DNA from: Squalus acanthias
Lineage: Eukaryota
Assembly (NCBI GenBank): GCA_030390025.1
Contig: JASTWF010000080.1
Span: 1 to 64,000 of the forward strand
Direction: 5' to 3'
Length of the DNA stretch: 64,000 nt
Shown: piece by piece, positions 8,103-37,500 of the stretch
Position numbering within the stretch: the first letter of the stretch is position 1
Layout of the letters: every line of letters begins with the position of its first letter
Notes under the pieces: model-generated
Databases searched by the model: none
Seen by the model: the letters and a program-made list of their open reading frames with translations, nothing else
Told to the model about the DNA's origin: nothing
Translations under genes and position numbers: made by a program

Positions 8103-8739
8103 AATATTTACCAATTTAAGCTTCACTCGCAGCCTGTGGCTGTTTGTTAACAGAGCTGAGTCAAAACTGCTTTTGACTGTCTCCGCGGCTATATTCGAAC
8201 AGTCTTTAACATTTCCATACCCACAGGGAATTATGGGTAAGATTAGTTGGTCAATGGCTACCCTTGAATTTATACATATGAGATTTGTCTAAATACCAGT
8301 CTTTCGTACAGTCCCCACCTCGAGGATGAAATGTTTCAAACATTGATTCCTCGACTATTTCAATCTATTCTCTGACAAGCGTTGTTGCAAATTGGAGTCC
8401 TCTAATTGAGGGGAACGGAGCGCTTCTCAAAGGAGGTTTTATCCCCCTCGTCATTATCGGTCTGGGTTCTAACTATGACATTCCCAGGGGCCGACCCTTT
8501 ACTATTGTCATGGCTGAGGGACACCCTGGGGTCTCCCTAACCATCATGTCGGCCGTGCTGATATTCCTTTCCTTCCAGTGCGTCCCAGTCTATCATTTCT
8601 CCTCCGTCCGCTGCTCCTACTGCTGAATCATACGATCTGACAGTGGTGACCCTGATCTGACCCCGCCTGGGTCTCCTCTACATTGCTTCGGATCTTCTCT
8701 TTCGGTGTGCTATATTAATTTGTTGGTGCTGCTTAGTCA

Positions 8740-9890
8740 TAGGCATGAGTACACAATTGGCTTATCCATCGAAGTCTTACTACACGGGTTACATATATCA
8801 AATACACTATCATTACAAGTTGGAGAACTAACTGAGCGTGTGAATTAATTCAAACCTAAGGGTGTGCTGATATATTAAGCCCAATATCCCACCAGTGTGA
8901 GTTTCCCCTATGCTGTTAATTTCAATATCTATTCTCGAGTTGTCTTGCTCCAAAACATCAAAATGCTTCAGGGAGGAGTTCAGTCACATCATGAGCTCAC
9001 TGAAACCCCCAGACAACAGGGGACTGTAGTATCCGAATTGTGCCACATAATTGTGCAGCTCATACTTAAGTATCTCATTTACTGTCAGTTTCACTTGAGC
9101 ATAGGTTTTGATATTGAGTAAAACGAGTTGGTTGATGGGACAGGTCCTGTTCGACCCGTAGATCATGGTAGTTGCGGTAGTAGTGACACAGGAGGCACCA
9201 CCAAAACCACCTCATTCTGGATTCGTGCTGGTTTTTCCCACGAGCTGTTACCTACAAAACACAATTATTACAGTCACAAGTTAAATTCAGTCTTACAATC
9301 ATTTCACGCGACAACTAATCAACAAATCAGATCTCTCTTTTACTCGTATCCATCTTGTGGATAATTCATGTTAAACATGATTTCTCCTCAGCCCTCAATT
9401 GTCCCAATCCAAATTTCATGTAACTCTCCACTTCAACTACGATTTCATTCCCTCTAACAGGTACCAGTGTGTTTAACTCTATTCTGATTGTTTCATTAGT
9501 TAGATAGTTTCTCGATGGAGTATGCGTCAATGCTTTAAAAGTTGTCTCACTCTCCTGAGCCACATTAACCATTTCATGTCGTGCTGTTGTCAAGTAACGG
9601 AGAATGTCTGAGACCCGTTCTTCAGTGCAGATTCACCATACATTTCCGGATGGTAATTGCTCCATACGCACAAATCACATTTGCACACTCGTACCGGTAT
9701 CTCAATATCATGCCAAACGTGCCATCCGATACAAGCCATTCCCGGGCTTTCAGATGATCCTATCAAAAGATTGTAGTTGTCTGGAGATCTTTGCTCATCT
9801 TCCTCTGCATGGTCCCGATGTCTTAGGTAGTGGCCAGACTATCAATTCAGTTTTCTTAAAAAGTACATAGGCAAGACACAAATGTCTCCA
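8740..9890 (-). pseudogene. Degenerate env-like fragments of the LTR element
   Basis: Located just 5' of the PPT and 3' LTR; broken frames with N-glycosylation sites and Cys, ending in SHWWDIGLNISAHP*V*INSHAQLVLQLVMIVYLIYVTRVVRLR (Trp-rich membrane-proximal segment, TM, basic stop-transfer). Confidence 0.45.
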
Positions 9891-11765
9891 AGAGAAAGCT
9901 ATCAATTTACTATTTGTAACTACACTTTCCTGACTTTCACTAGAAAGTTAGGAAAATTCCCATTTGATGGTGTAATTCTCCTGTTTCTATCTCGCACCCT
10001 CAATCACTTCCTCTCTCCATTTTACACATCCCATTAATTATCATTCATATCTCATTCATGAGTCCTGGAGGAACTTTACTGTCCAGTACAATATTTACGA
10101 TAGAAAACATAGATCAAACATTCTCACTTGGTCCAAGTTATTAACACTTTTTATTGATCATTATTTTAGAGGATCTTTTATTTTCCCAAAAGTAACCCAA
10201 TATATAGTGCCTGAGTCCATTTTGTCATTTCAAAATTATCCCAAAATCCAAACAGCAGTACTGTTGAACTGATCGGTTTTGTCAATGTTCAATTTCATTT
10301 CTATCAATTTATCTTATCAATTCCAATTTCAGAAACAAGTGATTCTCAGGCTAGGTGGTTTACACAGTGTTTTAACATTAGAGACAGAAGTGTTACAATT
10401 AGTTTACAAGGTAACTTCCATATAACAAAAGAAAGCAGAGAATCCATTGTGGCTCTGCTTAAGAGCCCAAGGGGTTAATTTATCAAATCATAATTTACCT
10501 TCTGCCACTCTGGGGAAATATTAACTTCAAATTAAGAAACTTAAATTTAACAATGTCCAATATCTTTAAACTTCATTCAGCAATACTAAAGTTGTTGCTC
10601 GGTGAACTTAAACAGCTGTCGGTGGAAAGGGTTAACTCCTTTGCAGGTTTTTAAGAAGGTGGAGTGAAACATTGTCAGGCGCACGCAATTGCGTCACTTC
10701 ACGTAAATTAAAAAAATCTTTCCCGATCGAAAAAGACAGTTGTGTTGTCACACTTTAACTAAACACGAACAGAACAGATAAAACAAAACAAAATAGCACA
10801 TGCTTGCAGGAAACAGTAAATTACGTCATATTTCTAATTGTCCTTTCTTCAGATGCCTTTCCAAATAACTGTAAAAACATTGAATACAACTGGAGAAAAA
10901 TTAGTTTTTCACATTTAAACAAATCAAATCAAACTGCTTTGGAAGATTTCACCACAGCAACCACGATTCCAAGGTTAAATCTTGGACTGAAACGTAATCT
11001 TTTGTTAAACAAACTTTTTGTTTTTCTCAGTTTTTCCACACCAGCTTAACTTAAATTGTAGTTCAAAGTTTTTTTTTCTAATTCTTGGGGCACAGTCTTA
11101 TTCGCACATTCTTAAAACTTCCAAAATCCAAGACAACACAAAAGGGTTAAACGCCTTTAACACAGAAGTGGGTGGAGCTAAAACACACACAATAGACACT
11201 TTTTGTTTTAAAGACAAACTTTCAGACAAAAGGAATACTGTAACTTCTTAAACATTCATAGTTAGGAAAACTTTTACTCTTTAACACACACTTCCACACA
11301 AACTGAAATTCCAGCATTTTTTAAGGTTCCTTTCACTCAAGTCTTGTGTTTTATTTGTTTCAGCACAGACGTGAATAACTTCCATGTCGGTAAAACTTTA
11401 AGTTTCTCTTTTTTTTCCTTTTTTGTAAATCGGCATCTCAGCAGCTTTTCCTGGCTTTCCAAATCCCTGTTTTTTTCCTTTTCTTTGCTGAATTTTCAGA
11501 TTGGTTAGCCTGCAATTTAGATTTTTTTCCTTCTCTATCCCCCCACTCTCTCTCCTGCACTTTATGCTTCACCTCCTTCAGGCTATCTATCAACTGTTCC
11601 CAGTGATATGCTAACGCCATTGTATTTCTGGTTTTACTTTTTAACACACTCTTTCCCACTTGCTACTTTCAGAGAGAAAAACACTCAGTCTAAGCAACAA
11701 TCACGTGTGTTTGACCAAGTCCCTCTGGTCCCCATAACCAGAACCTTACAACTCGCAACTCTGTG

Positions 11766-11783
11766 ATCCCACTTCTGACACCA
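11766..11783 (-). promoter_or_regulatory. Primer binding site complementary to tRNA-Leu(CAA)
   Basis: TGGTGTCAGAAGTGGGAT 1 nt after the LTR end; same sequence at 40283-40300 and 61537-61554. Confidence 0.85.
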
Positions 11784-12520
11784 CTGTAAGATTTGGATCA
11801 CAGGTCACACACAGATTACCCAAAGGTTCTTAGGAGTTGTAAGGCTTTTTATTAAAGAGCTACAGTTTAAAGCATAATCAGATATTGCTACATGTGATTG
11901 AAATAGATACAGTAGACACACAACCCGTGACAGATGAGGGCGATCTACGGCCCTAGAATGGAACGAAACAACCGAACAGACGGGGAGGCAGTACGGTGGT
12001 CTCGGATTGGGTGGATTCCTGCAGTCTGCGGTCACTTCCGTTGGGTCATCCCTCGAGCTGTTGGAGGTGTTAGGCCGCAGCCACCTTGGGGAAGCCTTCG
12101 CCCCTAACTGCCTGATTTCCTCTCTCGGTCGTCTACTTTTATAGTTATTGCGGTGGGCTGGTGATTACCTGGTGTCAATCATTTGTTCCCCATCCCATTG
12201 TCCAATTACAAGGGAGAGATTACCTATGACAGCCCCCTCCTAGTCTCATGAGGTAATTTTCCTCCTTATCTCTGTTCTAAAGGTCTTGTTGGCCTCTTGT
12301 AGACAGCTTATTTATCCTCCAGCTCCTTGCTGCATCCCGTATCAGGCCTAGTTATGCCCACTCGAAGGCCTGTTTTTGTGTTCTGACCTCGTAATTCAGC
12401 TCTCTGTGCAGCTATTTTTCTGACATGACTGGAATCTTTCTGTGTCATCAACTTAGGCAAACTGCTGATCGAGGGAACCCGTAACAGACTATTATTTCTT
12501 TCAATCCATGATTTCTTACA

Positions 12521-12711
12521 AGTGTCTGGGAGGGTGAGTCGGGGTGAGGAGGGGAGTGAGATTAGTCTGACAGGGTTTAACAGTGTCTGGGAGGGTGAGA
12601 TGGGGTCAGGAGGGGAGTGAGGTTAGTCTGACAGGGTTTAACAGTGTCTGGGAGAGTGAGATTAGTCTGACAGGGTTTAACAGTGTCTGGGAGGGTGAGA
12701 CGGGGTCAGGA
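12521..12711. repeat. 61-bp minisatellite, left part, split by the foamy provirus
   Basis: Unit GAGATTAGTCTGACAGGGTTTAACAGTGTCTGGGAGGGTGAGACGGGGTCAGGAGGGGAGT; resumes at 18718. Confidence 0.9.
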
Positions 12712-15700
12712 TCAAGGGATAATTACTAGCCCTAGCCCATTTGTGGCTACCCCGGATCAGGCATATTTCTCAGATGTTCACTTTCAACTATAGTTTGGGT
12801 TAGCTGCATCCGAAAGACGCTTAATTGGGTCTAAAGGTCCGGACTATCTCTCCCTAAAGGAAAGGAACAACTCGAGAATGTTACCGTCCTCCAGATAGCA
12901 CTTTTAATAAGTTTAGCTAGACTGTAACATTCCGGATATTATGAGGGTCCGGAAAACTCCCCCAGAATTCTGCAACTCCTCACCAAAGAGTGTACAGAGA
13001 TTGAGTATGCGAGTTTTTGATACAGAAGTCTTGTGAGACAATTCTAAAAATATATAGATTTATTAAAGAACCGGCATGCAATTTACAGTTGGTGAATCAA
13101 TCGCAACATGAACAGTTCCAAAAAGAGAAAACATACGATCATTTTAACAGAGAATCTTACTTTCAAATCTTAACTTCGCTACAGTATTACAGTTCTTAAA
13201 GTGTTCCACAGAATATCCACCAATATCAAATACCTTTGATCCCCGAGGTACAAAGAGCTGAAGCCGAGAATCGCTTTGCCTGATTAAAGCGAGTCTGTTA
13301 TCCATTTGAGAGTTCAATATTTATATCCTTTTCCAGTGGTATTTCCTTTAAAGTTTTCTGCTGATGCAAGCTAATTATCTCTAGTCATTTTTCTGCCAAC
13401 CTCTGCAACTCTTACAGCCACCTCAGCCAGAATCATGTCTCATCTCTAGGTGTTCTAAGTTTACCATATAAAAACAGTGTGACAGCAGGTGTTCCTTACT
13501 TTATGTCATCTTTACGAGGGCAGATGTTCCTTATCTTATGTGCTTCTTTACAAAGTGTAAATTAGAACACCTTATCCAGGGTGAACCATTGTTTCGTTCC
13601 CGAAAGTTCAGCCTGTCGGAGCCCTTCACCTTCTGTTTCAATAAGGTTATTTATTCAGGGTCAACATCTATCTGATCTCAATAGCCAGAATGCTTTCACA
13701 GCTATTTCATAGTTAGGTTTCTAAATTTCCAAACCCAGTTTGTCATGTTTTAATAAGGCCAGAATTCTTTCATAAGATAGTGTATTTTTCTGAATAGGTT
13801 ATATGGCTTATTCCTTCACACCCACCTCTTGACTAAAAAATGAGCTCGAACATCAGTGCAGAGTTTGGTCAATGTTACAAATAAGGTTGCAATAGTACAT
13901 TAATTTCACGAGATTCACAAGAGCCCAATCATGTGCTACATGAAAATTCCTTTAAGTCATCCCAGGACTATGTTTTACCTTATTTTAAATTGAACACAAA
14001 TGAAAGAATGATAGGAACATTGTCATGCAATTAGCGAAACAACATGTACTTAGAATGTCCAATTGACAGATGTATGTTCCGTAGAGCTGAGTTATTCATA
14101 CGAGTTAAGGAGACGTCATTTGGAGCTGGCTGAAGCTTGACACAATGTTCCATTGATCCAGCGTGAGGACAGATTCTTGTTTTCGTAAAGGCCTTGCCAG
14201 AATCTCAGATGATTCCTTCTCCATCCACAGTGTTTCCTCCTTCGTTGAAGTAACTTGTTGGTCTTTACTTGTTTTGGTTGTGGCTTTTTGCGAATCCAAT
14301 TTCTGAGGCGTTGCCAAGCATCATGTGGAGGAGTCGGCGACACTGTCTGGCTGACTGTCGTCAGTAGTTCCATCGCATCCATTTGCTGTGTCGTGCTCCA
14401 AGCTGGGTCTTGGAAGACAGTGTACGACAGCACCTTGTATTGTTCCTCCCTTCCGGTATCCAGCAGGACATCTTTTGAGATTGTCTATGGAGACAGTTTT
14501 AAGAATATGTTTGCCATTCGGCTGATTAATATGTATTTTAACAGTTCTTTCATTAATAACGGAACGTATTTGAACAGGTTTTTTCCACTTATGTCTTAAA
14601 CCAGGTTTTTGCTCGAACTTCTTTTCCTGTACCCATTCTCCTGCTAGGGGTTGCCATGCTTTGTTTGTCAATTTTTTCTGCCTATTTGTCTCCCTTATCC
14701 TCTGATCAATTTAATGTATCTCCTCTGTTTCTTTTTTTAAATCTAACTGTCACTGTCGGGTAAAGGAATCAGAGAGTGCAGAGGCAATAAAAGAACTATG
14801 GGTAAGCGGTGTATGCATCTCAACCCCATACATCAGATAATATGGAGTTTTAGGGGACACTGTCCCTGATGCAGATGCGGGCACATTATCGAGTGATAGC
14901 TGTACCTCCGGAATGACGGTGTTCCACTTATTTCCCCTGATTCTCAACAGTTTGACCAATAGCTTTTTTACTTCCTGGTTTTTACGTTCCACCAGCCCCG
15001 CTGATTGTGGATGACGTGGCGTGCTGTGCTCTAACCCAATCCCCCATTGCTCGCAGTAGTCTTTGAAGACCTTGGAGACAAAGGCTCCGCCTTGATCGGA
15101 GTGTAAGATTTTGGGTGCACCAGCTACAGTAATTATGTCATTGGCGAGTGTGTTTTCCGAAACAGTTTTTGTGGGGACCAGCCAGCAGAAGGAAGTGCAT
15201 CCATCTACACAAATGAGAACATGTCTGTATCCCAAAGATGGGGGAAGTGGTCCAATGAAGTCAATAATGAATTTTCCCATTGGTTCATCAGCTTTCACAC
15301 AAGCCAATGGTGGTGGCTTAATTAGTGATGACTCATTGGTTAAATAGCATGGCTCACAATTTGCCACGTATGTTTTACAGGCCTTAAGCATGCCTGGCCA
15401 CCAATATAAGAGAGTCAATTTACAGAATGTTGTTCTGGCACCACAATGTGCTTGACCTATGCCCTCGTGAGCTCCTTTTACAAGCTATTCTCGTTTGTGT
15501 CTCGGGGGTACCTCTCGGTTTCCCTTGAGCACAATACCAGTAGGGGTTTCTGAGTAAAAGTACTTTGATGGATATCCTGGTGGATTCTCTTTTGTTGGCT
15601 CTAATAGCTGAATCAGTTCCTCATCCTGATTAGCTGCCCGTTCTGCCCTAGTAATAACACTAATATTGGCAGGCCCCTCTCGAGGGGGTGTCATGCAGAC

Positions 15701-15900
15701 TGAACATTTCGCTTGTTCGTCTGCAAGACTGTTTCCTTTTGAGTGTACTGTCCCAGTGGTATGCCCGTTTACATGAATCACCTGACAATTCTGTTTCTCC
15801 ATCCTCGAACGGAGAATGTCTTCCCACAATGACTTATGTTTTATGGGTTTAGCCTTATGGTTGGTAAAGTTTGTTTGTTCCCAGAAAACTAGATCTTGGT

Positions 15901-16554
15901 ATAACAACAGCAAACGCTGGAAAAACTCAGCAGGCCAGGTAGCATCCGTGGAGAGAGAAACAGAGTTAACGTTTCAGGTCGAAGACCTTTCGTCAGAACT
16001 GGAAAAAAGCAGGAAATGAAATAGATTTAAAGCAAGTATAAAGCTGGGAAAAGGGGGAGGGGATGAAAGAACAAAGGGGAAGGTCAGTGGTGGGATAGAA
16101 AGCAGGAGAGATTAAGAGACATTGAGAGACATTAAGAGATAATCAAGGTAAGTGGAGGTGTTAATGTGACAGGTTGAGGCGAGATGAAGTGTGAGATGCG
16201 CTGGCAGAATGAAGGACAGCTGCCAGCTTATGGGAGGGGGGAAAAAAGGCCAAACAAAAGGGTGGATGAAAAAAAATATATAAATGTGATAGGGGCCAAG
16301 GTTATGATCTGAAATTGTTGAACTCAATGTTGAGTCCAGAGGGCTGTAGGGTGCCTAAACGAAAGATGAGGTGCTGTTCCTCGAGCTTACGCTGAGCTTC
16401 CATGGAACAATGCAAGAAGCCGAGGACGGTGAGGTCAGAGTGGGAGTGGAGCGGAGAATTAAAGTGACAGTCCACCGGGAGCTCGGGGTCCCCCTTACGG
16501 ACTGAACGGAGGTGTTCCGCAAAGCGGTCACCCAATCTGCGTTTGGTCTCCCCA
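15901..16554 (-). mobile_element. Penelope-like element 3' fragment (GIY-YIG C-terminus and terminal repeat) inserted in foamy RNase H
   Basis: IGETKRRLGDRFAEHLRSV...KLEEQHLIFRLGTLQPSGLNIEF; ATCTTGGT flanks both sides (15893-15900, 16555-16562). Confidence 0.85.
15961..16002 (-). ncRNA. Minimal hammerhead ribozyme motif in the Penelope terminal repeat
   Basis: Minus strand cagttCTGACGAaaggtcttcgacctGAAACgttaactctg: catalytic boxes, stem II AGGTC-TTC-GACCT and palindromic AACGTT stem III. Confidence 0.6.
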
Positions 16555-17013
16555 ATCTTGGTTATCTTGGTTATATCCTCTTTTACAATAGTCACTATCT
16601 GTACAGATTAATGTGGGTTTAAGAGGGTCTGCCTTTTCTAAAGCATACCATAGTGCTGCGGCTTCAGGATATTGCGCTGTTTTATGGCCAAGGGGTATGG
16701 ACAGTAATTCTTCTGGATAAAAAGAATAGGAATCTCAAAAAGTCCCTGCTACTATCCCCATCCCAGCTGAGGATTGTTGGGATGTCCCTTTTTTAATCGT
16801 CATTGACGATCCCTCATAGTAAATGACTTGTTGGTAGCAATCGTTTGAATTTCCTAATAAAAAGACTTGGCCAATTCCGACAGGGTTTGCCATTTCGTCA
16901 GGACCTAACCTCGGTTAGGATTTAATATGAACTTTATAAGAAATTTCTAGACCTGAATGGTATATTGAGGGAGTTCTGATTTAAGTTCTACAAGGCCTGA
17001 TCAGGGACTTCTT

Positions 17014-17380
17014 GGGGGAAAAATTCAGTTGGTTGCGCCTCCCGTTAGTGCCTTAAGAGGGCACTAATGGGGCGCAAAGCAACCAGTGCCCGGGCGCGGC
17101 GATGTTTGCGCCGCTCGCGAAATTAACTAGACATTTTGCGGCGGCGCTAAACAGTACCGCCACGATCTCCTGCGCCGGCAGATCGTGACGTCAGTCGAGT
17201 GCGCAACGCCCCGGTAGTGCCACGGAGCGGATATTGAGTGGCGCCCCCTGCCTTACCGCCTGCCGCTAGCAACGACAGGTTGAGGGAAGCGTTTTGCAGT
17301 CAGGAAGGGACTGGGGAGCGCTATTTAAAGGCGACCGCTTCCTGCCTTTTTTTGTTGGCGACATTTTTGAACCACGCATT

Positions 17381-17417
<37 letters not shown>

Positions 17418-17837
17418 CTGGAGAGATTCAACGCTGTGTGAAGGAGTTTTGGGTACTGTGCAGTACTTTGCAGGTTCATTTTGATTTGCCCTTCCTTGTA
17501 TCGATTTAGAAGTCACTGTGGGGGCTGCACTCTGAGCTCTTTCCCTGGGCCTCCCCATTGCTCTTTCCAGCAGATTTGATGTACAGGTTTCTCCAGGCCG
17601 AGATTCAAGGCTGCAATGAGCAGGATGTGGATGGAAAGCAAGATCAACCCTCCCCTTTAAGAACTGGCCGGGGCCATTTTGTGTGTGTTCCATTGCTGAC
17701 TGACATCACATGAGCTTCGCCAGCGCGCTGAGTTAGCGCCTCGCTCCTCGGCCTTTGCGCCTTAAGACAGAGGTGTAGCGCCTGATTTAGCGCTCCAATC
17801 ACCTCCAGGGGCGATAAAAGTCAAGTTTGCAGTCGGA
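17014..17837. mobile_element. Harbinger-derived non-autonomous DNA transposon, one end deleted
   Basis: Starts with TIR GGGGGAAAAATTCAGT; reverse-complement homologue of 26125-27010. Confidence 0.75.
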
Positions 17838-18717
17838 GAATTCTGCAACTCCTCACCAAAGAGTGTACAGAGATTGAGTTCGCGAGTTTTTGATACAGAA
17901 GTCTTATGTGAGACAATTCTAAAAATATATAGATTTATTAAAGAACCGGCATGCAGTTTACAGTTGGTGAATCAATCGCAACATTTACAGTTCCAAAAAG
18001 AGAAAACATACGATCTTTTTAACAGAGAATTTTACTTTCAAATCTGAACTTCGCTACAGTATTACAGTTCTTAAAGTGTTCTACAGGATATCCACCAATA
18101 TCAAATACCTTTGCTCCCCGAGGTAAAAAGAGTTGGAGAATACAGAGCCGCCTCTGAAGCCAAGAATCGCTTTGCCCAATTAAAGTGAGTCTGTTATTCC
18201 TTTTGAGAGTTCAATATTTATACCCTTTTCCAGTGGTATTTCCTTTAAGGTTTTCTGCTGATGCAAGCTAATTATCTCTAGTCATTTTTCTGCCGACCTC
18301 TGCAACTCTTACAGCCACCTCAGCCAGAATCATGTCTCATCTCCAGGTGTTCTAAGTTTACCATATAAAAACAGTGTGAGGGCAGGCGTTCCTTACTTTA
18401 TGTCATCTTGACGAGGGCAGATGTTCCTTACCTTATGTGCTTCTTTACGAAGTGTAAATTAGAACACCTTATCCAGGGTGAACCATTGTTTTGTTCCCAA
18501 AAGTTCAGCCTGTCGGAGCCCTTCACCTTCTGTTTCAATAATGTTATTTATTCAGGGTCAACATCTATCTTTACTCATTAGCCAGAACGCTTTCACAGCT
18601 ATTTCATAGTTAGGTTTCTACATTTCCAAACCCAGCTTGTCATGTTTTAATAAGGCCAGAATTCTTTCATAAGGTAGTGTATTTTTCTGACTAGGTTATA
18701 TGGCTTATTCCTTCACA

Positions 18718-18900
18718 AGGAGGGGAGTGAGATTAGTCTGACAGGGTTTAACCGTGTCTGGGAGGGTGAGACGGGGTCAGGAGGGGGAGTGAGATCAGTC
18801 TGACAGGGTTTAACAGTGTCTGGGAGGGTGAGACAGGATCAGGAGGGGAGTGAGATTAGTCTGACAGGGTTTAACAGTGTCTGGGAGGGTGAGACGGCGT
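18718..18900. repeat. 61-bp minisatellite, right part
   Basis: Continuation of 12521-12711. Confidence 0.9.
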
Positions 18901-18953
18901 CGGTGAGGATGTGAGTGTGTGCGGCGGGTTTGATGCTTGACATTATGCCTGGT

Positions 18954-19275: not shown

Positions 19276-19284
19276 GATTCTTAC

Positions 19285-19398
19285 CTCTCCGTTGTTTTAT
19301 CCAGATGAATATTCCAATTATCCCGATTATAACCAGTGCAGCGACTGTTCCAATTATAATTCCAGGATGGGAGCGTGCTCCACTGTTTTCCGGTATTT
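19285..19398 (-). CDS. MHC I copy 1 connecting peptide/transmembrane exon
   Basis: tttcag|...EIPENSGARSHPGIIIGTVAALVIIGIIGIFIWIKQRR...|gtaag. Confidence 0.9.
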
Positions 19399-22300
19399 CT
19401 GAAACACATTTGAATAATATCAGGATAGTTTCTCTGTTCCCGGATCCATTCCCAGTTCGGTGTCGATGGAGGGACAATTTTAACCTCACCCGCCCGTCGG
19501 GAATCTGAGGGATCGGGTCCAACGCTGGTTTTACTCTCGCCTGATCTCACTCTCCACTGGAGTCAATAAAGAGTCTCATTGATGGTGGTGTTGGACCGGC
19601 GTTGCCCCGATCCCCGGGGTTACCTGCCCGGCGAGCTCGGTTCAATTTACCCCCCATGTCTGTGTCCTGTCCTGGGTCCATCCCCAGGGTCACATTGTAC
19701 GCCCCAGGAGTCAGCATCACTGATGGATTTCACATCAAACTTCAAAGGGATGGGGAATAAATTGACTGCAGCAAACTGGGCTGAGCTGGTAATGAGTAAA
19801 GCTACAGATAAACAGTGGGGACGCTTCAAAAGAAGTACTGGGTACAATCCAACACCAGGACTTTCCCCGACAACGCAAAGACTCCACTTCTGTAGTTAGG
19901 CAACCATGGTCGACAAATGAAAGAAGTGAGAGTATCCAGGTAAAGGGAAAGGCTGACACAGTGACCAGAGATTGAGATACAGAGCACTTAGACAAGTATC
20001 GGCTGATCAGAGAGTCAGCATAGATTTGTGAAGGGTAGGTCCTGTCTGACTAATCTAATTGAATTTTATGAGGAGGTCACTAACATGGTGGATAAGGGAG
20101 TGTCGGTGGATGTTGTGTATCTGGACTTCCAGAAGGCATTTGATAAGGTTCCTCACGAGAGATTATTAGCAGAAATAAAAGCTTACAGATTTGGAGCTAA
20201 TCTTGTGACACGGGTTGAAAATTGGCTGGGAGGAAGGAGTCAGAGAATCGGGATAAAGGGAATGTGCTCCGATTGGCAGGATGTTCTGAGTGGTGTTCCC
20301 CAGGGATCTGTACTGAGGCCTCAGCTTTTCACCATATATATCAATGACTTGGATGAAGGAACAGGGAGTTGTATATCCAAGTTTGCAGATGGCACTAAGT
20401 TAGGATGCACAGTAAAGGGACATTGACAGATTAAATGAGTGAACTGCATCTGCCACAGTTTTGCCCAAGGTGGGGAAGTGTGAGATCATCCACGCGAGAT
20501 CTGAGAAAGACAGATTGGAATATTGTCTCAATGGTGACAGACCAGGAGCTGTAAAGGAGCAAAGAGATTTGGGTGTCCATGTCCACAAATCACTAAAAGC
20601 TCGTGCCAGGGTTAAATAAAGCAATCAAAAAGGCTAATGGAATGTTGGCTTTAATCTCAAGAGGGTGAGAATAGAAAGTGAGGAAATTATGCTTCAGTTG
20701 TACAGACCCTTGGTCAGACTCCATCTGGCGTATTACATTCAGTTCTTGGCACCAAACCTCACGTAAGATATATTGGCCTTGGAGGGGGTACAGAGCAGAT
20801 TCACCAGAATGATACCAGCTCAGAGGGTTAAATTTTGAGGACAAAGTTGGCTTGTATTGCGCTGAGTGTAGAAGGGTGAAGGGTGGTCACATTGAGGTGT
20901 TTAAAATGATAAAGGGATTCGATAGGGTAGATACAGAGAAACTATTTTCACTGGTGGTGAATCCGGAACAAAAGAGCATAATCTTAAAATTAGAGCCAGG
21001 ACAGTTAGAGTGAAATCAGAAAGCACTTCTTCACACAAAGGGCAGTGGAAATCTGGAACTCTCTCCCCCAAAAGTCTGTGGGTTCAATTGAAATTTTTAT
21101 GACTGAGATCGAGTGATTTTTGTTGGGTAAGGGTATCAAGGGATGTAGAGCAATGACGGGTAAATGGAGTTGAGGTACTGATCAGTCATGATCTCATTGA
21201 ATGGTGGAACAGACTCAAGGGGCCGAATGTCCTACTCCTGTTCCTATGATCCATACATGCTCACAGAGACACACGCACACATCCAGTGCAGTTCCTTACC
21301 CCACCGATAGACCTTTGCCTCTGCCAGGCTGCTGTGTTCAATTTGACAGGAGTATTGATCCTCATCCCCAGCATTCACTTCAATCTCGTTCTTGATCTGA
21401 TGGGTCCCATTGTGGTTCGGTCGAACCCCCGAGGAGTGGCTCTCAGACACTGGCTCTCCATTCCTTAGCCAGGTCACCTCGATGTCTACAGGGTAAAATC
21501 CAGTAACCAGGCAGGAGAGAGTGGGCGGTTTGTACTGAATATTGGGGTCAGTTTTGGAGATGAACACTTCGGGCTGAACTGAAAGGGGAAAGGGAGAAAA
21601 CACAAACAGTAGACAGACACCGAATGGAATGGGAGAACGGTTTCATAGATCTGTGAAGTTAGATCAGAACATGGGATAAAAACTGAAATCAATACCTTTC
21701 CTTTCAAAGTATTCCTTTCCAGCTCGCAAATATAAATGTAAATGCTCAACAAATCCTACTTCCAGATGTGTTTTCCAATACTTGTTCCAGGATTCACCCG
21801 AATTCCATTTCTCCATTGTCTTCACCGCATTGTGATTGGATGCGACCCATCTCATTCTGTCTGGCTCTAAACTAATATAGTCCTTTCCGTCATATCCAAC
21901 ACGCATCGATCTCTTAATGGAGCCGTCGTCAGTTATTTCAACGATTGAAATCCATTGAAAAATGTGAACTCCTGTCAGTGACCAAACAGTAATCAATAAT
22001 CAATAGTTAATGGAAAATCACAAATCAGTCTGATCAGAGGGGAAAGGGACTGTAGAATCAGATATAAATGGGGGGGTTAGAGTCACAGACTGATCACAGA
22101 ATCCCCACAGTGCAGATAGAGGCCATTTCGGCCCATCGAGCCTGCACCGACACATATCCCACCCTATCCCCGTAACCCCACGTATTTAATCCCCCTAACA
22201 CCAAGGGTCAATTTATCATAGCCAAATCAACCTAACCCGCACATCTTTGGACTGTGGGAGGAAACCGGAGCACCCGGAGGAAACCCACGCAGACACGGGG

Positions 22301-25300
22301 AGAATGTGCAAACTCCACACAGACAGTCACCCGAGGCCGGATTCGAATCCGGGTCCCTGGCGCTGTGAGGCAACAGTGCTAACCACTATGCCACCGTGTA
22401 GAAATGGGGTGTTAGAGTCACAGTCTGATCAGAGGGGAAAGGGGCTGTAGAATCAGGGGGAAATGGGGGGTTAGAGTCACTGTCTGATCAGAGGGGAAAG
22501 GGGCTGTAGAATCAGGGGGAAATGGGGGGTTAGAGTCACAGTCTGATCAGAGGGGAAAGGGACTGTAGAATCAGGGGGAAATGGGGGGTTAGAGTCACAG
22601 TCTGATCAGAGGGGAAAGGGACTGTAGAATCAGGGGGAAATGGAGTGTCCCAGGGGTCAGTGCTAGGAGATGGGCTGAGTGGAGTGTCCCAGGGATCAGT
22701 GCTGGGAGATGGGCTGAGTGGAGTGTCCCAGGGGTCAGTGCTGGGAGATGGGCTGAGTGGAGTGTCCCAGGGGTCAGTGCTGGGAGATGGGCTGAGTGGA
22801 GTGTCCCAGGGATCAGTGCTGGGAGATGGGCTGAGTGGAGTGTCCCAGGGATCAGTGCTGGGAGATGGGCTGAGTGGTGCGCTAGACATTGACCAGTACA
22901 CATGGTTAAAAGGTCATTGCTTCAGCAGGAACATCGACGTCTCCTCCCAACACGCATGCTCGTTAGTGTTACGATCTGTTGAATGCTCTCCGCACATTCT
23001 CCATCCATGAGTGAGTGCCTCTGTCCCTAATAGTCTTCACTGCCTTAACTCTCTGAGGTATTTAACACAGAGAGTCCCATTCTCCTTTCACACTGCCTCC
23101 TGGATTGGCATTGCCCATTCTGCTCTACTGGAGAAGACCGATCTCACCCCCAGATATATGAATATACACCGAGACACAAAAAGAAGCCAGGAATTGCCCA
23201 ACAAGCTTCCCTTTCCTGGATGGTCACAACCATCTCACCATATTCTCAACTTGCTCTATCGCAAACCTCTCCTGATCTTCGTCAATGTGGTCAGAACTTT
23301 GTAAATATCTCGATCAGAATAGGGAGAAGGAACAGAATAACTGTCTGTGTGTCCCTGATTCATGGTGGCCATACACTATACAGTCCAGTGTTAGAATGCA
23401 GTATAACTATGGCTGGGTACCTGTCCGGCACCCATTAAACAGGGCAGGCGGTGGGAGATTCTGCTGATCTTACCGGATGTCTGGTTTGTCCCCTTCATTA
23501 TCGTATTCAGATTCTCCTTTGCTGTGGTTGACAGTGTGTTCCCGAGACCTGTGAGAAGATCCCAGTATTCCACATCGAAAGCGTCTGCCATGAACTGCTG
23601 CCTGGGGATCATCCGACGGATATCAGTGTCATGATAATTAAGTTGAACTCCCTTCACCATCGCAACATTAGTAACCTCGGGAAAGTCACTAATGCCAGAG
23701 ATTGCCATGTACATCACAGTAAGTGAGTTAGTGTCTGTAAAATAAACAATTAAAGGGACAGATTAATAGAGTCATAGAGTTATACAGCATAGAAAGAGGC
23801 CCTTCGGCCCATCGTGTCCGTGCCGGCCATCAAGCCCTGTCTATTCTAATCCCATTATCCAGCACTTGGTCCGTAGCCTTGTATGCTATGGCGTTTCAAG
23901 TGTTCATCTAAATGCTTCTTGAATGTTGTGAGGGTTCCTGCCTCTACCACCCTTTCAGGCAGTGAGTTCCAGATTCCAACCACCCTCTGGGTGAAAAAGT
24001 TTTTCCTCAAATTCCCTCTAAACCTCCTGCCCCTTACCTTGAAACTATGCCCCCTGGTTATTGACCCCTCTACTAAGGGGAAAAGTTCCTTTCCATCTAC
24101 CCTATCTATGCCCCTCATAATTTTGTACACCTCAATCAGGTCCCCCCTCAGCCTTCTCTGCTCTAAGGAAAACAACCCCAGCCTGTCCAGTCTCTCTTCA
24201 TAGCGGAAGCGCTCCAGCCCAGGTAACATCCTGGTGAATCTCCTCTGCACCCTCTCCAATGCATTCACATCCTTCCTATAGTGTGGCGACCAGAACTGCA
24301 CACAGTATTCCAGCTGTGGCCTAACTAGCATTTTGTACAGCTCCATCATAACCTCCCTGCTCTTATATTCTATGCCTTGACTAAAGGAGGCAAGTATCCC
24401 ATATGCCATTTTAACCACCTTATCTACCTGTCCTGCTGCCTTCAGGGATCTATGTACATGCACACCAAGGTCCCTCTGATCCTCTGTCCTTCCTAGGGTC
24501 CTACCATTCTTTGTGTATTCCCTTGCCTTGTTAGTCCTCCTAAAATGCATCACCTCACACTTTTCAGGGTTAAATTCCATTTGCCACTGCTCTGCCCATC
24601 GAACCAATCCATCTATATCGTCCTGTAGCCTGAGGCTTCCCTCCTCGCTATTTACCACTCTTCCAATTTTCATGTCATCTGCGAACTAACTGATCATACC
24701 TCCTACATTCATATCTAAATCATTAATGTACACTACAAACAGCAAAGGACCCAGCACCGATCCCTGCGGTACACCACTGGACACAGGCTTCCAGTCACAA
24801 AAACAACCTTCGACCATCACCCTCTGCCTCCTGCCACTAAGCCAATTTTGGATCCAATGTGCCAAATTGCCCTGGATCCCATGGGCTCTTACCTTCTTGA
24901 CCAGTCTCCCATGTGGGACTTTGTCAAAAGCCTTACTGAAGTTCATGTAGACTACATCAACTGCACTACCCTCATCCACACACCTAGTCACCCCCTCGAA
25001 AAATTCAATCAAATTGGTTAGACATGATTTCCCCCTGACAAAGCCATGCTGACTATCCTTGATTAATCCTTGCCTCTCCAAGTGGAGACTAATTCTGTCC
25101 CTCAGAATTTTTTCCAATAATTTCCCTACCACTGATGTTAGGCTCACTGGCCTGTAATTCCCTGGTTTATCCCTTCTTGAATAATGGTATTATGTTAGCT
25201 GTTCTCCAGTCCTCTGGCACCTCCCCTGTGGCCAGAGAGGTTCTGAAAATTTGTGTCAGAGCCCCTGCAATCTCCTCCCTTGCCTCACACAGCAGCCTGG

Positions 25301-28300
25301 GATACATCTCATCTGGGCCTGGGGATTTATCCACTTTTAAGCCCGCTAAAACCGCTAGTACCTCCTCCCTCTCAATACTAATTTGTTCAAGTATATCTCA
25401 ATCCCCCTGCCTGATTTCTATGCCTATATCGTCCTTCTCCATAGTGAACACAGATGCAAAATATTCATTTAAAACCTCACCTACATCTTCTGGCTCTACA
25501 CACAGATTGCCACTTTGGTCCCTAATGGGCCCTACTCTTTCCCTGGTTATCCTCTTGCCCTTAATATACTTATAAAACACCTTGGAATTTTCCTTTATTT
25601 TGCCCGCCAGTGTTTTTTCATGCCCCCTCTTCGCTCTCCTAATTTCTTTTTTAAGTAGCCCCCTGCACTTTCTATACTCCTCTAGGGCTTCCACTGTTTT
25701 TAGTCCTTTGTATCTGCCAAAAGCCTCCCTTTTTTTCCTAATCCATTCTCGTATATCCCTTGACATCCAGGGTTCCCTGGGCTTGTTGGTGCCACCCTTG
25801 ACCTTTACGGGAACATGTTGGCGTTGTACTCTCTCTATTTCCTTTCTGAAAGACTCCCACTGCTCTGTACATAATAAACATTTACAAACACTATTCAAAG
25901 TGATGCCCATTCAAAAAATGACAATCTCCAACAGCCCACCACTTTATCGCAACGTCTGATATTATAAATATAATACAATTAAACTGGGTCAGAATCAGAT
26001 GGCTGCAGCACCTCCCAACAGGGAGTAAACATGGAATCAGAGTCACTGAGATGCCTGATGAAGTCCGAGGGGACACGTGGGCGAGTCGGGGACACATTCG
26101 AGGGATGGTGGTGTTAAACAGAAGGGGGGAAAAATTCAGTATCGTCCCATTTGGGGCGCAATTATCGGCCGGGCGCAAAGTTTAGCGCCTGGTGCTAATT
26201 ATCGCCTCCGACTGCAAACTTGGCTTTTATCGCCCCTGGAGGTGATTGGAGCGCTAAATCAGGCGCTTCACACCTGTCTTAAGGCGCAAAGGCCGAGGAG
26301 CGAGGCGCTACCTCAGAGCGCTGGCAAAGCTCATGTGATGTTAGTCAGCAATTGAACACAGACACAATGGCGCCGGCCAGTTCTTAAGGGTGAGAGATGA
26401 TCTTGCTCTCCATCCACATCCTGCTCATTGCAGCCTTGAATCTCGGCCTGGAGAGACCTGTACATCAAATCTGCTGGAAAGAACAATGGAGAGGCCCAGG
26501 GAAAGAGCTCAGAGTGCAGCCCCCACAGACTCTTCTAAATCGATACAAGGAAGGGCAAATCAAAATGAACCTGCAAAGTGCTGCTCAGTACCCAAAACTC
26601 CTTCACACAGCGTTGAATCTCTCCAGAAGTCTCTCTCTCTCTCTCTCAGAATGCGTGGTGCAAAAATGTGACGAACAAAAAAAAGGCAGGAAGCGTCCGC
26701 CTTGAAATAGCGCTCCCCCAGTCCCTTCCTGACTGCAAAACGCTCCCCTCAACCTGTCGTTGCTAGGCGGTAAGGCAGGGGGCACCACTCAATATCCAGT
26801 CCGGGGCGCTACCAGGGCGTTGCAACTCGACTGACGTCACGATCTGCCGGCGTAAAAGATCGTGGCGGTAGTGTTCAGCGCCGCCGCAAAATGTCTCGTT
26901 AATTTCATGAGCGGCGCAAACATCGCTGTGCCCGGGCGTTAGTTGCTTTGCGCCACATTAGCGCCTTCTTAAGGCGATAACGGGAGGCAAAGCAACTGAA
27001 TTTTTCCCCCAAGATCTCTAAACAAGGAACAGTAACCTGGGACACACCCGGTCTATCTCAAACCAGGAACAGTAACCTGGAACACACCCGGTCTATCTCG
27101 AACCAGGAACAGTAACCTGGGATACACCCGGTCTATCTCTAACCAGGAACAGTAACCTGGGACACACCCGGTCTATCTATAACCAGGAACAGTAACCTGG
27201 GACACACCCGGTCTATCTCTAACCTGGAACAGTAACCTGGGACACACCCGGACTAAATCTACCCTGGAACAGTAACCTGGGACACACCCGGTCTATCTCT
27301 AACCAGGAACAGTAACCTGGGACACACCCGGTCTATCTCTAACCAGGAACAGTAACCCGGGACACACCCGGACTAAATGTACCCTGGAACAGTAACCTGG
27401 GACACACCCGGTCTATCTCTAACCTGGAACAGTAACCTGGAACACAACCGTTCTATCTCTAACCTGGAACAGTAACCTGGGACACACCCGGTCTATCTCT
27501 AACCAGGAACAGTAACCTGGGACACACCCGGTCTATCTCTAACCAGGAACAGTAACCTGGGACACACCAGGTCTATCTCTAACCTGGAACAGTAACCTGG
27601 GACACACCCGGTCTATCTCTAACCTGGAACAGTAACCTGGGACACACTCGGTCTATCTCTAACCTGGAACAGTAGCCTGGGACACACCCAGTCTATCTCT
27701 AACCAGGAACAGTAACCTGGGACACACCCGGTCTAACAATAACCTGGAACAGTAACCTGGGACACACCCAGTCTATCTCTCACCTGGATCAGTAACCTGG
27801 GACAAACCCGGTCTATCTCTAGCCAGGAACAGTAACCTGGGACACACCCGGTCTATCTCTAACCAGGAAAAGTAACCTGGGACACACCCGGTCTATCTCT
27901 AACCAGGAACAGTAACCTGGGACACACCCGGTCTATCTCTAACCTGGAACAGTAACCTGGGACACAACCGTTCTATCTCTAACCTGGAACAGTAACCTGG
28001 GACACACCCGGTCTATCTCTAACCAGGAACAGTAACCTGGGACACACCGGGTCTATCTCTAACCAGGAACAGTAACCTGGGACACACCCGGTCTATCTCT
28101 AACCAGGAACAGTAACCTGGGACACACCCGGTCTATCTATAACCAGGAACAGTAACCTGGGACACACCCGGTCTATCTCTAACCTGGAACAGTAACCTGG
28201 GACACACCCGGTCTATCTCTAACCAGGAACAGTAACCTGGGTCACACCCGGTCTATCTCTAACCTGGAACAGTAACCTGGGACACACCCGGTCTATCACT

Positions 28301-34510: not shown

Positions 34511-37500
34511 TGTAAGATTTCAATTGATCTCAGAGTTCTTGGACAAGACACCAATAGGCAGCAGCCAGTAAGTTTGAGCAATAGATCAGATTTATTAAGC
34601 TTACAGCGTAATCAATACTTAACAACAGGCGATAGTTTTAACGAGTAGCTCGCAGACCTTGGTCTCTGGAACCTCTCGGACACAGATGACGTCGTCTTAA
34701 GTCTGTTGCTTTGTTCTCGCAGTAAGTCTGTGTAAAGTTGTTCTTTGAGTGTCGAGGTTTTAACCCTTTTCTCATCAAAAGTTCGCTCAGCCAGTGTCCA
34801 TAGTCTTTAACAAATCACCTTCTTTCATTGGTTCCAATGGTCAAAATACCATTGTCACTCAGACTAAGGGTAGCTTCTTGCCTTTCCAGTATTTATCCTG
34901 CAACTTTACCCTGTTCATCGTTATCTTGTTTATAGTTCTTCACCCCATTGGAATTCATCTTATCTCTCTTATTCTAGGTTCCCTGGTACAAGCAGTGTTA
35001 AAAAAACTCTAATTAAGCTTAGCATTATAATACGTTATTTACCAATTTAACCTTCACTCGCAGCCTGTGGCTGTTTGTTACCAGAGCTGAGTAAAAACTG
35101 CTTTTGACTGTCTCCGCGGCTATATTCAAACAGTCTTTAACGTTTCCATACCCACAGGGAATTATGGGTAAGATTAGTTGGTCAATGGCTACCTTTGAAT
35201 TTATACATATGAGATTTCTCTAAATACCAGTCTTTCGTACAGTCCCCACCTCGAGGATGAAATGTTTCAAACATTGATTCCTCGACTATTTCAATCTATT
35301 CTCTGACAAGCGTTGTTGCAAATTGGAGTCCTGTAATTGAGGGGAACGGAGCGCTTCTCAAAGGAGGCTTTATCCCCCTTGTCATTATAGGTCTGGGTTC
35401 TAACTATGACATTCCCAGGGGCCGACCCTTTACTATTGTCATGGCTGAGGGACACCCCGGGGTCTCCCTAACCATCATGTCGGCCGTGCTGATATTCCTT
35501 TCCTTCCAGTGCGTCCCAGTCTATCATTTCTCCTCCGCCCGCTGCTCCTACTGCTGAATCATACGATCTGGCAGTGGTGACCCTGATCTGACCCCGCCTG
35601 GGTCTCCTCTACATTGCTTCGGATCTTCTCTTTCGGTCTGCTTAATTAACTTGTTGGTGCTGCTTAGTCATAGGCATGAGTACACAATTGGCTTATCCAT
35701 CGAAGTCTTACTACACGGGTTACATATATCAAATACACTATCATTACAAGTTGGACAACTAACTGAGCGTGTGAATTAATTCGAACCTAAGGGCGTGCTG
35801 ATATATCAAGCCCAATATCCCACCAGTGTGAGTTTCCCCTTTGCTGTTAATTTCAATATCTATTCTCGAGTTGTCTTGCTCCAAAACATCAAAATGCTTC
35901 AGGGAGGAGTTCAGTCACATCATGAGCTCACTGAAACCCTCAGACAACAGGTGAATGTAGTATCCGAATTGTGCCACATAATTGTGCAGCTCATACTTAA
36001 GTATCTCATTTACTGTCAGTTTCACTTGAGCATAGGTTTTGATATTGAGTAAAACGAGTTGGTTGATGGGACAGGTCCTGTTCGACCCGTAGATCATGGT
36101 AGTTGCGGTAGTAGTGACACAGGAGGCACCACCAAAATCACCTCATTCTGGATTCGTGCTGGTTTTTCCCACGAGCTGTTACCTACAAAACACAATTATT
36201 ACAGTCACAGTTAAATTCAGTCTTACAATCATTTCACGCGACAACTAATCAACAAATCAGATCTCTCTTTTACTCGTATCCATCTTGTGGATAATTCATG
36301 TTAAACATGATTTCTCCTCAGCCCTCAATTGTCCCAATCCAAATTTCATGTAACTCTCCACTTCAACTATGATTTCATTCCCTCTAACAGGTACCAGTGT
36401 GTTTAACTCTATTCTGATTGTTTCATTAGTTAGATAGTTTCTCGATGGAGTATGCGTCAATGCTTTAAAAGTTGTCTCACTCTCCTGAGCCACATTAACC
36501 ATTTCATGTCGTGCTGTTGTCAAGTAACTGAGAATGTCTGAGACCCGTTCTTCAGTGCAGATTCACCATACATTTCCGGATGGTAATTGCTCCATACGCA
36601 CAAATCACATTTGCACACTCGTACCGGTATCTCAATATCATGCCAAACGTGCCATCCGATACAAGCCATTCCCGGGCTTTCAGATGATCCTATCAAAAGA
36701 CTGTAGTTGTCTGGAGATCTTTGCTCATCTTCCTCTGCATGGTCCCGATGTCTTGGGTAGTGGCCAGACTATCAATTCAGTTTTCTTAAAAAGTACATAG
36801 GCAAGACACAAATGTCTGCAAGAGAAAGCTGTCAATTTACTATTTGTAACTACACTTTCCTGACTTTCACTAGAAAGTTAGGAAAATTCCCATTTGATGG
36901 TGTAATTCTCCTGTTTCTATCTTACATAGAAACATAGAAAATAGGTGCAGGAGTAGACCATTCGGTCCTTCGAGCCTGCACCGCCATTCAATGCGTTCAT
37001 GGCTGAACATGCTACCTCAGTACCCCATTCCTGCTTTCTCGCCATACCCCTTGATCCCCCTAGTTGTGAGTATTATATCTAACTCCCTTTTGAATATATT
37101 TAGCGAACTGGCCTCAACAACCTTCTGTGGAAGAGAATTCCACAGATTCACCACTCTCTGGGTGAAGAAGTTCCTCCTCATCTCAGTCTTAAATGGCTTC
37201 CCCTTTATCCTTAGACTGTGACCCCTGGTTTTAGTTTCCCCTAACATTGGAAACATTCTGCCCGCATCTAATTTGTCTAAGCCAGTCAGGATTTTAAACG
37301 TCTCTATAAGATCCCCCCTCATTCTTCTGAACTCCAGAGGATACAAGTTCAGTTGATCCAGTCTTTCTTGATATGTCAGTCTGGCCATCCCAGGAATCAA
37401 TCTAGTGAACCTTCGTTGCACTCCCTCAATAGCAAGAATGTCCTTCCTCAAGTTAGGAGACCAAAACTGCACACAATACTCCAGGTGTGGCCTCACCAAG

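Follow-up and report, generated by a model that had tools for sequence, protein, structure and literature searches.

Foamy viruses of the mammalian type are described as making Pol separately from Gag, from its own start codon on a spliced mRNA (PMC3705302). In cartilaginous fish, an endogenous foamy virus has already been published (Wang, Chen and Cui 2023, J Virol 97:e0181622), so shark foamy ERVs as such are already known; the wording of its title, "rooting to vertebrate counterparts", is consistent with where the family described below falls in our trees. For the small-spotted catshark, ERV-Spuma.0-Sca (PMC10699275) is described as a numerous foamy-like ERV (293 elements) whose gag and pol are annotated in the same frame (frame 3), with an LTR of ~870 bp, a gag of 2.3 kb, and a grouping with teleost foamy-like ERVs. 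The elephant shark element CmiFLERV, for which only pol is reported as found, and the teleost FLERVs likewise belong to the foamy clade and have aquatic hosts (PMC5512871, PMC5210030). In culture, env-deficient PFV retrotransposes intracellularly, and the review that describes this treats it as an open question whether foamy intracellular retrotransposition occurs naturally or only with env-deleted vectors (PMC3185757).

Here, we analyzed a 64,000-nucleotide stretch of Squalus acanthias DNA (the window; contig JASTWF010000080.1, positions 1 to 64,000), which hosts a minus-strand provirus at 12712-18717. This window copy is defunct and carries internal deletions; it belongs to a foamy-type ERV family of high copy number, with hundreds of relatives in the genome, and together with its MHC site it is ordinary when taken alone (i.e., one decayed copy among hundreds). 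We consider it likely that the window copy belongs to a form that spread non-autonomously, relying on more complete relatives for its packaging and copying.

The window provirus and its foamy affinity

The preliminary description had reported a 1.1-kb LTR, a PPT, and the TSD AGGA, and all three were recovered, with AGGA on both flanks and the PPT adjacent to the 3' LTR (Table 1). Its estimate that the LTRs are ~5% apart is close to the measured 4.55% (39/857 differences). Both LTRs are indeed present; neither is whole, as the 5' LTR has only 881 bp and the 3' LTR lacks the outer CA that occurs in 10/10 other parsed family copies. Deletion A removed ~3.3 kb (gag, protease, and RT) and left ~20 gag codons, and the window provirus holds no protease, RT, or env gene. 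From env, ~3.1 kb is deleted, with an identical junction wherever long and short env-less copies were compared; an appearance of two distinct env deletions proved to be an alignment effect, the junction being the same in the four comparable copies. A further ~480 bp (LTR end, primer site, and part of the leader) was lost at the 5' end of the window copy and is retained in the second copy. The two nested repeats are unrelated to the provirus, and the one interrupting RNase H has no Pfam match.

Table 1. Positions of the provirus, its target, and neighboring features in the window
Feature	Position	Strand	Comment
Target minisatellite, unit ~61 bp	12521-12711, resumes 18718-18915		Provirus integrated into it
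TSD AGGA, left	12708-12711	+	
TSD AGGA, right	18718-18721	+	
3' LTR, 1,109 bp	12712-13820	-	Begins TG; family's terminal CA absent at outer end
3' polypurine tract (PPT)	13821-13830	-	Just inside 3' LTR
env remnant	13826-14484	-	env start (overlaps integrase end), 35-bp internal env piece, post-env region
Integrase C-terminal SH3 part	14321-14710	-	PF18103; frame differs from that of core
Integrase zinc finger and core	14750-15484	-	PF17921, PF00665; DDE motif residues retained
RNase H second half plus integrase N-terminal extension	15485-15899	-	
Nested insert interrupting RNase H	~15900-16564	-	Presumably a Penelope-like endonuclease end
RNase H first half	16565-16836	-	Broken by a frameshift
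First gag codons	16836-16893	-	Fused in frame to RNase H via deletion A
Leader, 3' part	16894-17005	-	
Nested 0.9-kb repeat, inverted ends (MITE-like)	17010-17838	-	Further copies 26206-27014, 48506-49319
5' LTR, shortened to 881 bp	17837-18717	-	Primer-binding site gone
MHC class I-like transmembrane exon	19280-19399	-	Ends in splice donor ~0.55 kb from provirus
MHC class I-like alpha3 exon	21301-21582	-	
MHC class I-like alpha2 exon	21685-21975	-	
MHC class I-like alpha1 exon	23421-23735	-	
Second copy, 3' LTR	63178-64000	-	Whole copy extends to contig position 69627; 5' LTR complete, primer site present

The foamy identity that had been proposed from motifs is borne out. The window integrase scored 203 bits (E 5e-59) against PFV integrase, its best solved relative, compared with 52 bits for Ty3 and 36 bits for HIV-1, and the best match of the window RNase H is foamy Pol. 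Pol phylogeny agrees, with the window integrase (support 100/99), the family RT (100/98), and RT plus connection (99/98) all falling inside the foamy clade; orthoretrovirus, coelacanth, reptile, and bird references are absent from these trees, and matches that were too short were dropped (1/42 hits for RT, 5/35 for integrase). Pol does not group with Ty3/gypsy or gamma/epsilon-like ERVs; integrase scores and three trees place it with foamy viruses. In the RT plus connection tree, the family lies in a shark clade that includes a Scyliorhinus torazame protein (96/96) and is sister to the newt and mammalian foamy viruses; the grouping with the Scyliorhinus protein is absent from the shorter RT tree. 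CmiFLERV and the teleost FLERVs, in contrast, fall outside the clade formed by the window family and the tetrapod viruses (97/98). From ERV-Spuma.0-Sca as described, the family is set apart by an LTR of at least 1.1 kb, a gag of 525 codons, and its position outside the teleost clade.

With the exogenous foamy viruses (PFV, SFV, and FFV; Spumaretrovirinae), the family shares a Pol with 38-39% identity across 91% of the 894-aa query, the foamy-specific Gag, Env, and integrase domains, and a 4-bp TSD, which is the foamy length and was observed in 9/10 parsed copies. Fuller copies carry PF20672 (Gag central domain; E 1e-13) and PF03408 (Env; E 1e-21), and the foamy integrase SH3 domain is found in the window copy itself, where gag and env domains are absent. 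The family also has a PPT, TG...CA ends, and a tRNA-Lys1,2-type primer site that matches the human foamy virus PBS over 14 nt. Natural copies encode a YVDD RT motif and a Gag with Gly/Arg-rich stretches (by eye) and without a Cys-His box. Unlike the exogenous viruses, the family is mostly env-less, has hundreds of germ-line copies, and showed no exact central PPT in the two copies scanned. In three env-bearing copies, the ~0.6 kb that follows env contains only broken frames, in which no tas/bet-type accessory gene was recognised.

Copy classes and the gag-pol frame

The element had been thought rare, which the genome search contradicts. All 150 scored integrase candidates match at 88-100% identity, and 433 leader and 3,531 LTR candidates were returned at first look (contig depths were left out of the copy-number estimates). 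Fuller copies of two kinds were recovered: a few that bear env, located at six places in the genome (five of them examined), and env-less gag-pol copies (long forms). Most of the family consists of these long forms and of short forms from which gag, protease, and RT are missing. Among 69 dispersed copies chosen by integrase, there were 22 long copies, 15 with deletion A, 18 with B, 4 with C, and 10 other, and none carried env (0/69). A further 40 copies, chosen with a leader probe that came from a type-A copy and therefore biases the sample, comprised 18 A, 16 B, and 6 long, again with no env (0/40). The parsed dispersed copies carry their own TSDs at separate sites, and the family grew mainly through new integrations at dispersed sites. 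Median LTR difference was 2.75% for the sampled long copies (n = 10) versus 4.6% for type A (n = 16), i.e., the long copies look younger. Joints A, B, and C were also found in contigs from runs labelled as other organisms, whereas for expression no RNA data set was listed as a carrier. A near-length search seeded with the window integrase returned only two matches, both weak.

Three natural copies keep one and the same frame from the gag ATG onwards into protease. At the gag-pol boundary, 21 of 30 copies have a stop codon and the other 9 a sense codon, and no Met occurs between this boundary and the protease active site in the natural copies. Judging from sequence, the family thus appears to depart from the separate, spliced pol of canonical Spumaretrovirinae, having a single gag-pol frame and no pol AUG, and its Pol would be made as a Gag-Pol fusion.

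Short forms and their possible spread

Deletions A, B, and C are separate events, all of which retain the 5' end up to the first gag codons together with RNase H-integrase; among the 40 leader-chosen copies, every deletion form shared between copies included RNase H-integrase. Junctions A and B both fall at the RNase H start and are in frame in 20/21 and 19/21 parsed copies, respectively. Splicing was rejected as the source of these two deletions, since their ends are not GT-AG. The B breakpoint is located on look-alike sequence, and its position may reflect template switching rather than selection. According to PMC5035957, the foamy signal CAS-I extends 200 nt into gag, and CAS-II consists of ~1.8 kb of 3' pol. 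By position, the kept segments of the short forms match CAS-I and CAS-II; the kept region of the two copies scanned contained no exact copy of the central PPT, which PFV has within CAS-II, only other purine runs.

We propose that one env loss was followed by amplification of the family inside germ-line cells, by analogy with env-deleted foamy vectors, which behave in this way in culture. Deletions A, B, and C would have spared the 5' end with the gag start and RNase H-integrase because these segments carry the RNA packaging signals (CAS-I and CAS-II), not because a fused protein was needed. Packaging and mobilisation of the short forms are predictions of this model. Mouse IAP deletion forms, ETn/MusD, and VL30 present a similar combination of env loss, high copy number, and short passengers mobilised in trans; those are non-foamy, whereas the passengers of the window family keep 1.8 kb of 3' pol, as engineered foamy vectors do. 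In our literature search, which covered openly accessible papers and few supplements, we found no description of short or env-less endogenous foamy forms or of read-through.

A somewhat unlikely alternative is germ-line reinfection, in which the short and env-less forms were passengers in infectious particles of env-bearing helpers. Such env-bearing copies do exist, trans complementation has been suggested for teleost foamy-like ERVs (PMC5512871), and at several sites most type-A copies agree in allele with all five env-bearing copies and not with the long env-less ones. This allele sharing counts against intracellular spread, as it also fits help from infectious virus; the missing exact central PPT and the younger age of the sampled long copies relative to A also speak against our reading. 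On the other side, env-bearing copies are few, with none in either sample, type B is a mosaic with env-less long-form alleles, and the shared RT variants of the long copies look constrained.

It seems improbable that RNase H-integrase was kept as an in-frame Gag-RNase H-integrase fusion that was translated and useful in cis. The frame and position of both main junctions would suit such a protein, as would the low N/S of variants that at least three copies of type A or of type B have in common. However, the low N/S disappears after separating the variants that also occur in long, C, or env-bearing copies, and PFV is reported to package only the whole Pol precursor (PMC3705302). Variants private to A+B number 111 N/32 S, against 507/146 for singletons (p = 1), and those common to A+B and long or env-bearing copies number 56/55 (p = 1e-8). 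Private variants in three or more copies are few (30 N/11 S), making this a weak test of neutrality, and those found in just two copies may be recurrent mutations. Protein-level selection in the short forms was rejected, as it was not apparent once the shared variants had been separated; RNA rather than a fused protein was probably what these forms kept.

A more far-reaching reading, which we hold to be somewhat less likely than not, is that this foamy virus of sharks became a genuine family of intracellular retrotransposons whose natural passengers amount to minimal foamy vectors. The split CAS-I/CAS-II arrangement would then predate the shark-tetrapod divide, and spliced pol would have come later than an early Gag-Pol in one frame. 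The family appears to exemplify foamy retrotransposition in a natural germ line, with hundreds of datable copies; its separate deletions sparing the same segments would map cis signals in a lineage remote from mammals, and its single gag-pol frame is relevant to the time of origin of the spliced pol mRNA, a foamy hallmark.

The MHC class I-like site and the second copy

The inferred shark MHC class I-like cluster holds up, given that alpha1, alpha2, alpha3, and transmembrane exons were all identified. A 152-kb span of the contig holds six class I units, of which just two carry the provirus. Since both copies share the site, the TSD, and both nested inserts, a single integration was later copied at the DNA level. 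The second copy, said earlier to differ at only a handful of sites, does so at 9/5,096 (0.18%) over the 3' LTR and interior, and at 14/871 (1.6%) in the 5' LTRs. This near-identity reflects a recent gene-conversion tract of ~6 kb and not the date of duplication.

We give little credence to the earlier view that a rare provirus was passively multiplied by duplication of whole MHC units and can be dated by differences between copies. The shared site, TSD, and inserts fit it, and 5' LTRs that are not significantly less different than the flanks (p = 0.13) fit an older duplication; the hundreds of dispersed copies, the four empty units, and the fact that, beyond the homogenised tract, units 1 and 3 show no greater similarity than other units do not. 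Rarity and dating by inter-copy differences are refuted, multiplication of the family by MHC duplication is not supported, and what stands is the single copying at the DNA level. That the second copy is an assembly artefact of two haplotypes in tandem is very improbable: the 0.18% difference over 5.1 kb and a repeat-rich contig are compatible with it, but the flanks differ by 2-3% and the class I exons by ~8% of residues, as between other units, and inserts and intron lengths also differ between the two units.

In the proposed history, a type-A copy would have inserted into the minisatellite next to the transmembrane exon of a class I-like gene, an event that an assumed rate dates to ~45-55 million years ago. 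The provirus would then have gained its two inserts. One DNA-level copying into a paralogous class I unit and later partial homogenisation of the two copies by gene conversion would have followed. No contigs bridging the provirus-minisatellite junction were found from other individuals or species. Within class Ib, UEA is described as the multicopy lineage (PMC10751288). An ORF at 12308-12622 was rejected as a class I tail exon, because it coincides with the end of a different abundant repeat and has no convincing tail match. A single weak class I tail match at 4782-4687 (E 0.003) suggests that the provirus may be intronic in a class I-like gene.

Structure, age and host site of the window provirus

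The element in the window is a real foamy-type provirus, one decayed passenger out of a large family, and it sits in a minisatellite. Its Pfam matches comprise the integrase zinc finger, the integrase core, a foamy-type SH3 domain, and RNase H in two pieces, and the integrase scored 203 bits against prototype foamy virus (PFV), 52 against Ty3, and 36 against HIV-1. It has no protease, reverse transcriptase (RT), or env and almost no gag. The foamy virus identity advanced in the preliminary description is borne out by the integrase scores, the SH3 domain, and the trees described below, and the proposed target-site duplication (TSD), AGGA, was confirmed at the provirus ends. Both of the LTRs it reported are present, but the 5′ LTR lacks its end. 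A second copy carries ~480 bp, spanning the end of the LTR, the primer site, and some of the leader, that the window copy lacks, and both copies have two other repeats nested inside. Inserts of the 0.9-kb inverted-end element were also found in other foamy-family copies and other class I units.

Features mapped in the window
Feature	Position	Length	Remark
Window provirus	18717 to 12712		minus strand
3′ LTR of window provirus		1,109 bp	
5′ LTR of window provirus		881 bp	
Second provirus copy	start 63178		
Nested element with inverted ends	17010-17838, 26206-27014, 48506-49319	0.9 kb	
Class I-like gene	23735-19280		exons alpha1, alpha2, alpha3, transmembrane; same strand as provirus
Repeat directly left of the minisatellite	8105-12520		
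LINE RT fragments	20007-20426, 23855-25959, 37017-38354, 56309-57646, 59237-61001		one with a 536-aa open frame

The LTRs at the class I site differ by 4.55% (39 differences, 12 of them CpG-type) and 5.56%, in agreement with the earlier estimate by eye of ~5%. With the 0.5e-9 per year that has been assumed for catshark (PMC10699275, in part), the integration would be about 45-56 million years old, uncorrected; it could be older if one uses 7e-10 per generation, a rate obtained from pedigrees (PMC10587355, in part).

A search with alpha3 of the neighboring class I-like gene returned shark proteins or records without an organism name in 111 of 112 matches, the best by identity being Heptranchias (89%) and Pristiophorus (86-87%), which marks the host as a shark. 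Seven close alpha2 matches occur on the contig, six of them within the first 152 kb (units 1 to 6), and the cluster is likely a multicopy non-classical lineage (compare PMC10751288, in part). Tail exons of the class I-like genes were looked for, and none was firmly placed. The units at 1-152000 form a patchwork: the alpha1-alpha3 translations of units 2 and 5 are identical, alpha2 of unit 6 is divergent (74%), and introns between alpha1 and alpha2 measure 1.4 to 13.5 kb. The repeat to the left of the minisatellite recurs there in all six units; where it ends, at 12520, several runs show an abundant repeat end. The LINE fragments are presumably CR1-like.

The provirus is present in units 1 and 3, and units 2, 4, 5, and 6 have the bare minisatellite. 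Between ~12000 and 17900, units 1 and 3 hardly differ (9 differences in 5,096 positions of the provirus), whereas their 5′ LTRs differ by 1.6% (p=4e-7) and their flanks by 2-3%, as between other units. Thus, a single integration was copied once at the DNA level, and the two units were later partly homogenised. Of the passive multiplication by MHC duplication originally suggested, only that one DNA-level copying step stands; the provirus occupies only two of six units, and the near-identity reflects the homogenised tract. The empty units either never held the provirus or lost it cleanly via recombination between flanking repeats.

Placement in the foamy clade and the gag-pol frame

The Pol of a long copy (i.e., the env-less gag-pol form) shares 38-39% identity with simian foamy Pol, scoring 596 bits against 170 for the next match outside the foamy viruses, and feline foamy virus was the top match in a search of 1.8 billion representatives. 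The Pol phylogeny proposed earlier as a check gave the same answer, as RT, integrase, and RT-plus-connection trees all place the family inside the foamy clade. In the longest alignment, the family, a second lineage of the same genome, a Scyliorhinus torazame protein, and one further database record make up a shark clade (96/96). This clade is sister to newt and mammalian foamy viruses (97/98), with the teleost and elephant shark elements falling separately. In a shorter tree, the S. torazame fragment was placed elsewhere. A 2023 paper reportedly concerns foamy viruses of cartilaginous fish, and the position of the shark clade fits its title.

Three natural copies have a single frame running from the gag ATG via 525 codons into protease, and in a database relative in the shark clade, one frame of 1,687 aa spans gag-pol. 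Of 30 copies, 21 carry a stop at the boundary codon and 9 a sense codon; between that codon and the protease active site, the copies read contain no Met. In mammalian foamy viruses, by contrast, pol expression uses an mRNA made by splicing (PMC3705302, in part), a defining feature that the family does not appear to fit, judging from its sequence. Nor was an exact central polypurine tract found in the copies scanned. Given both departures, we file the family under the foamy clade and not as a canonical spumaretrovirus. The frequency of the sense codon (long and C copies) is far above background change, and these variants may have spread as lineages.

The second lineage (L055-L056, ~78.18 Mb on G000:C10) is distinct, its RT being 48% identical, and it has long open frames, gag and pol lying in one frame. 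Its LTR segments are 99.7-100% identical, indicating a much younger integration, and its env and gag gave no foamy Pfam match. Other ERVs with long Pol frames (L150, L151, L152, L155, and L156) belong to further, non-foamy families; two cluster with frog elements (Xenopus, Aquarana "NYNRIN-like").

Env loss, amplification and short forms

The interest lies in the family rather than in the window copy: mass amplification accompanied by the loss of env, short forms that resemble vectors, and a one-frame gag-pol. Our literature search found no description of these in endogenous foamy viruses, the 2023 paper being known by title alone. Endogenous foamy viruses had been presented as rare, which this family is not: across the genome, every one of the 150 integrase candidates that were scored matches at 88-100%, and first-look candidates numbered 433 for a leader probe and 3,531 for an LTR probe (40 scored per probe). 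Family copies have TG...CA ends; the TSD is 4 bp in 9 of the 10 that were parsed, and the primer site has 14 nt identical to that of human foamy virus (PMC3386198, in part). A foamy env profile matched six places in the genome; the five inspected all belong to this family.

Env was found in none of 69 dispersed integrase-chosen copies (9 hand-picked, partly for long frames, and 60 taken by rank order). These comprised 22 long copies, 15 with the type A deletion common to the window copy, 18 B, 4 C (without protease-RT), and 10 other or cut. Forty leader-chosen copies yielded 18 A (1 by its 5′ breakpoint only), 16 B, and 6 long; none had a shared form lacking RNase H-integrase, and some had lost integrase parts through one-off events. 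Median LTR-LTR difference was 4.6% for A (n=16), 3.15% for B (n=20), and 2.75% for long copies (n=10), and in a tree of 98 copies, which was star-like in shape, the A, B, and long forms were interspersed. The A, B, and C joints were also seen in contigs from four runs, each labelled as a different organism (A in 3, B in 3, C in 3 or 4; short sides, 23-56 letters), so the deletions probably predate the split of those species.

Deletions A and B fuse the first gag codons in frame to the start of RNase H; their 3′ breakpoints lie 20 nt apart, and C ends ~80-100 nt earlier. The short forms thereby retain about the set of cis elements essential in PFV: CAS-I, which ends 200 nt inside gag; CAS-II, which covers ~1.8 kb of 3′ pol; and CAS-III (PMC5035957, in part). 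Counting non-CpG variants only, those private to A and B (111 non-synonymous/32 synonymous) show the same proportion as singletons (507/146), and the protein of the short forms therefore looks unconstrained; for variants common to three or more copies (30/11), the test is weak. Non-synonymous change is depleted among A and B variants that recur in long, C, or env-bearing copies (56/55, p=1e-8), which argues for sequence exchange between the short forms and coding helpers, something that co-packaging would permit. Env-deficient PFV retrotransposes in culture, its natural occurrence being called open (PMC3185757, in part). Mobilisation of the short forms with help from env-bearing virus is a real rival; in allele sharing, A tends toward env-bearing copies and B toward both groups.

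Tandem proviruses with a common middle LTR were seen at L133 with L132 and at L134. L072, L090, L091, and L106, short copies that lie on small contigs and are almost identical to one another, are probably segmental duplicates or haplotypes.
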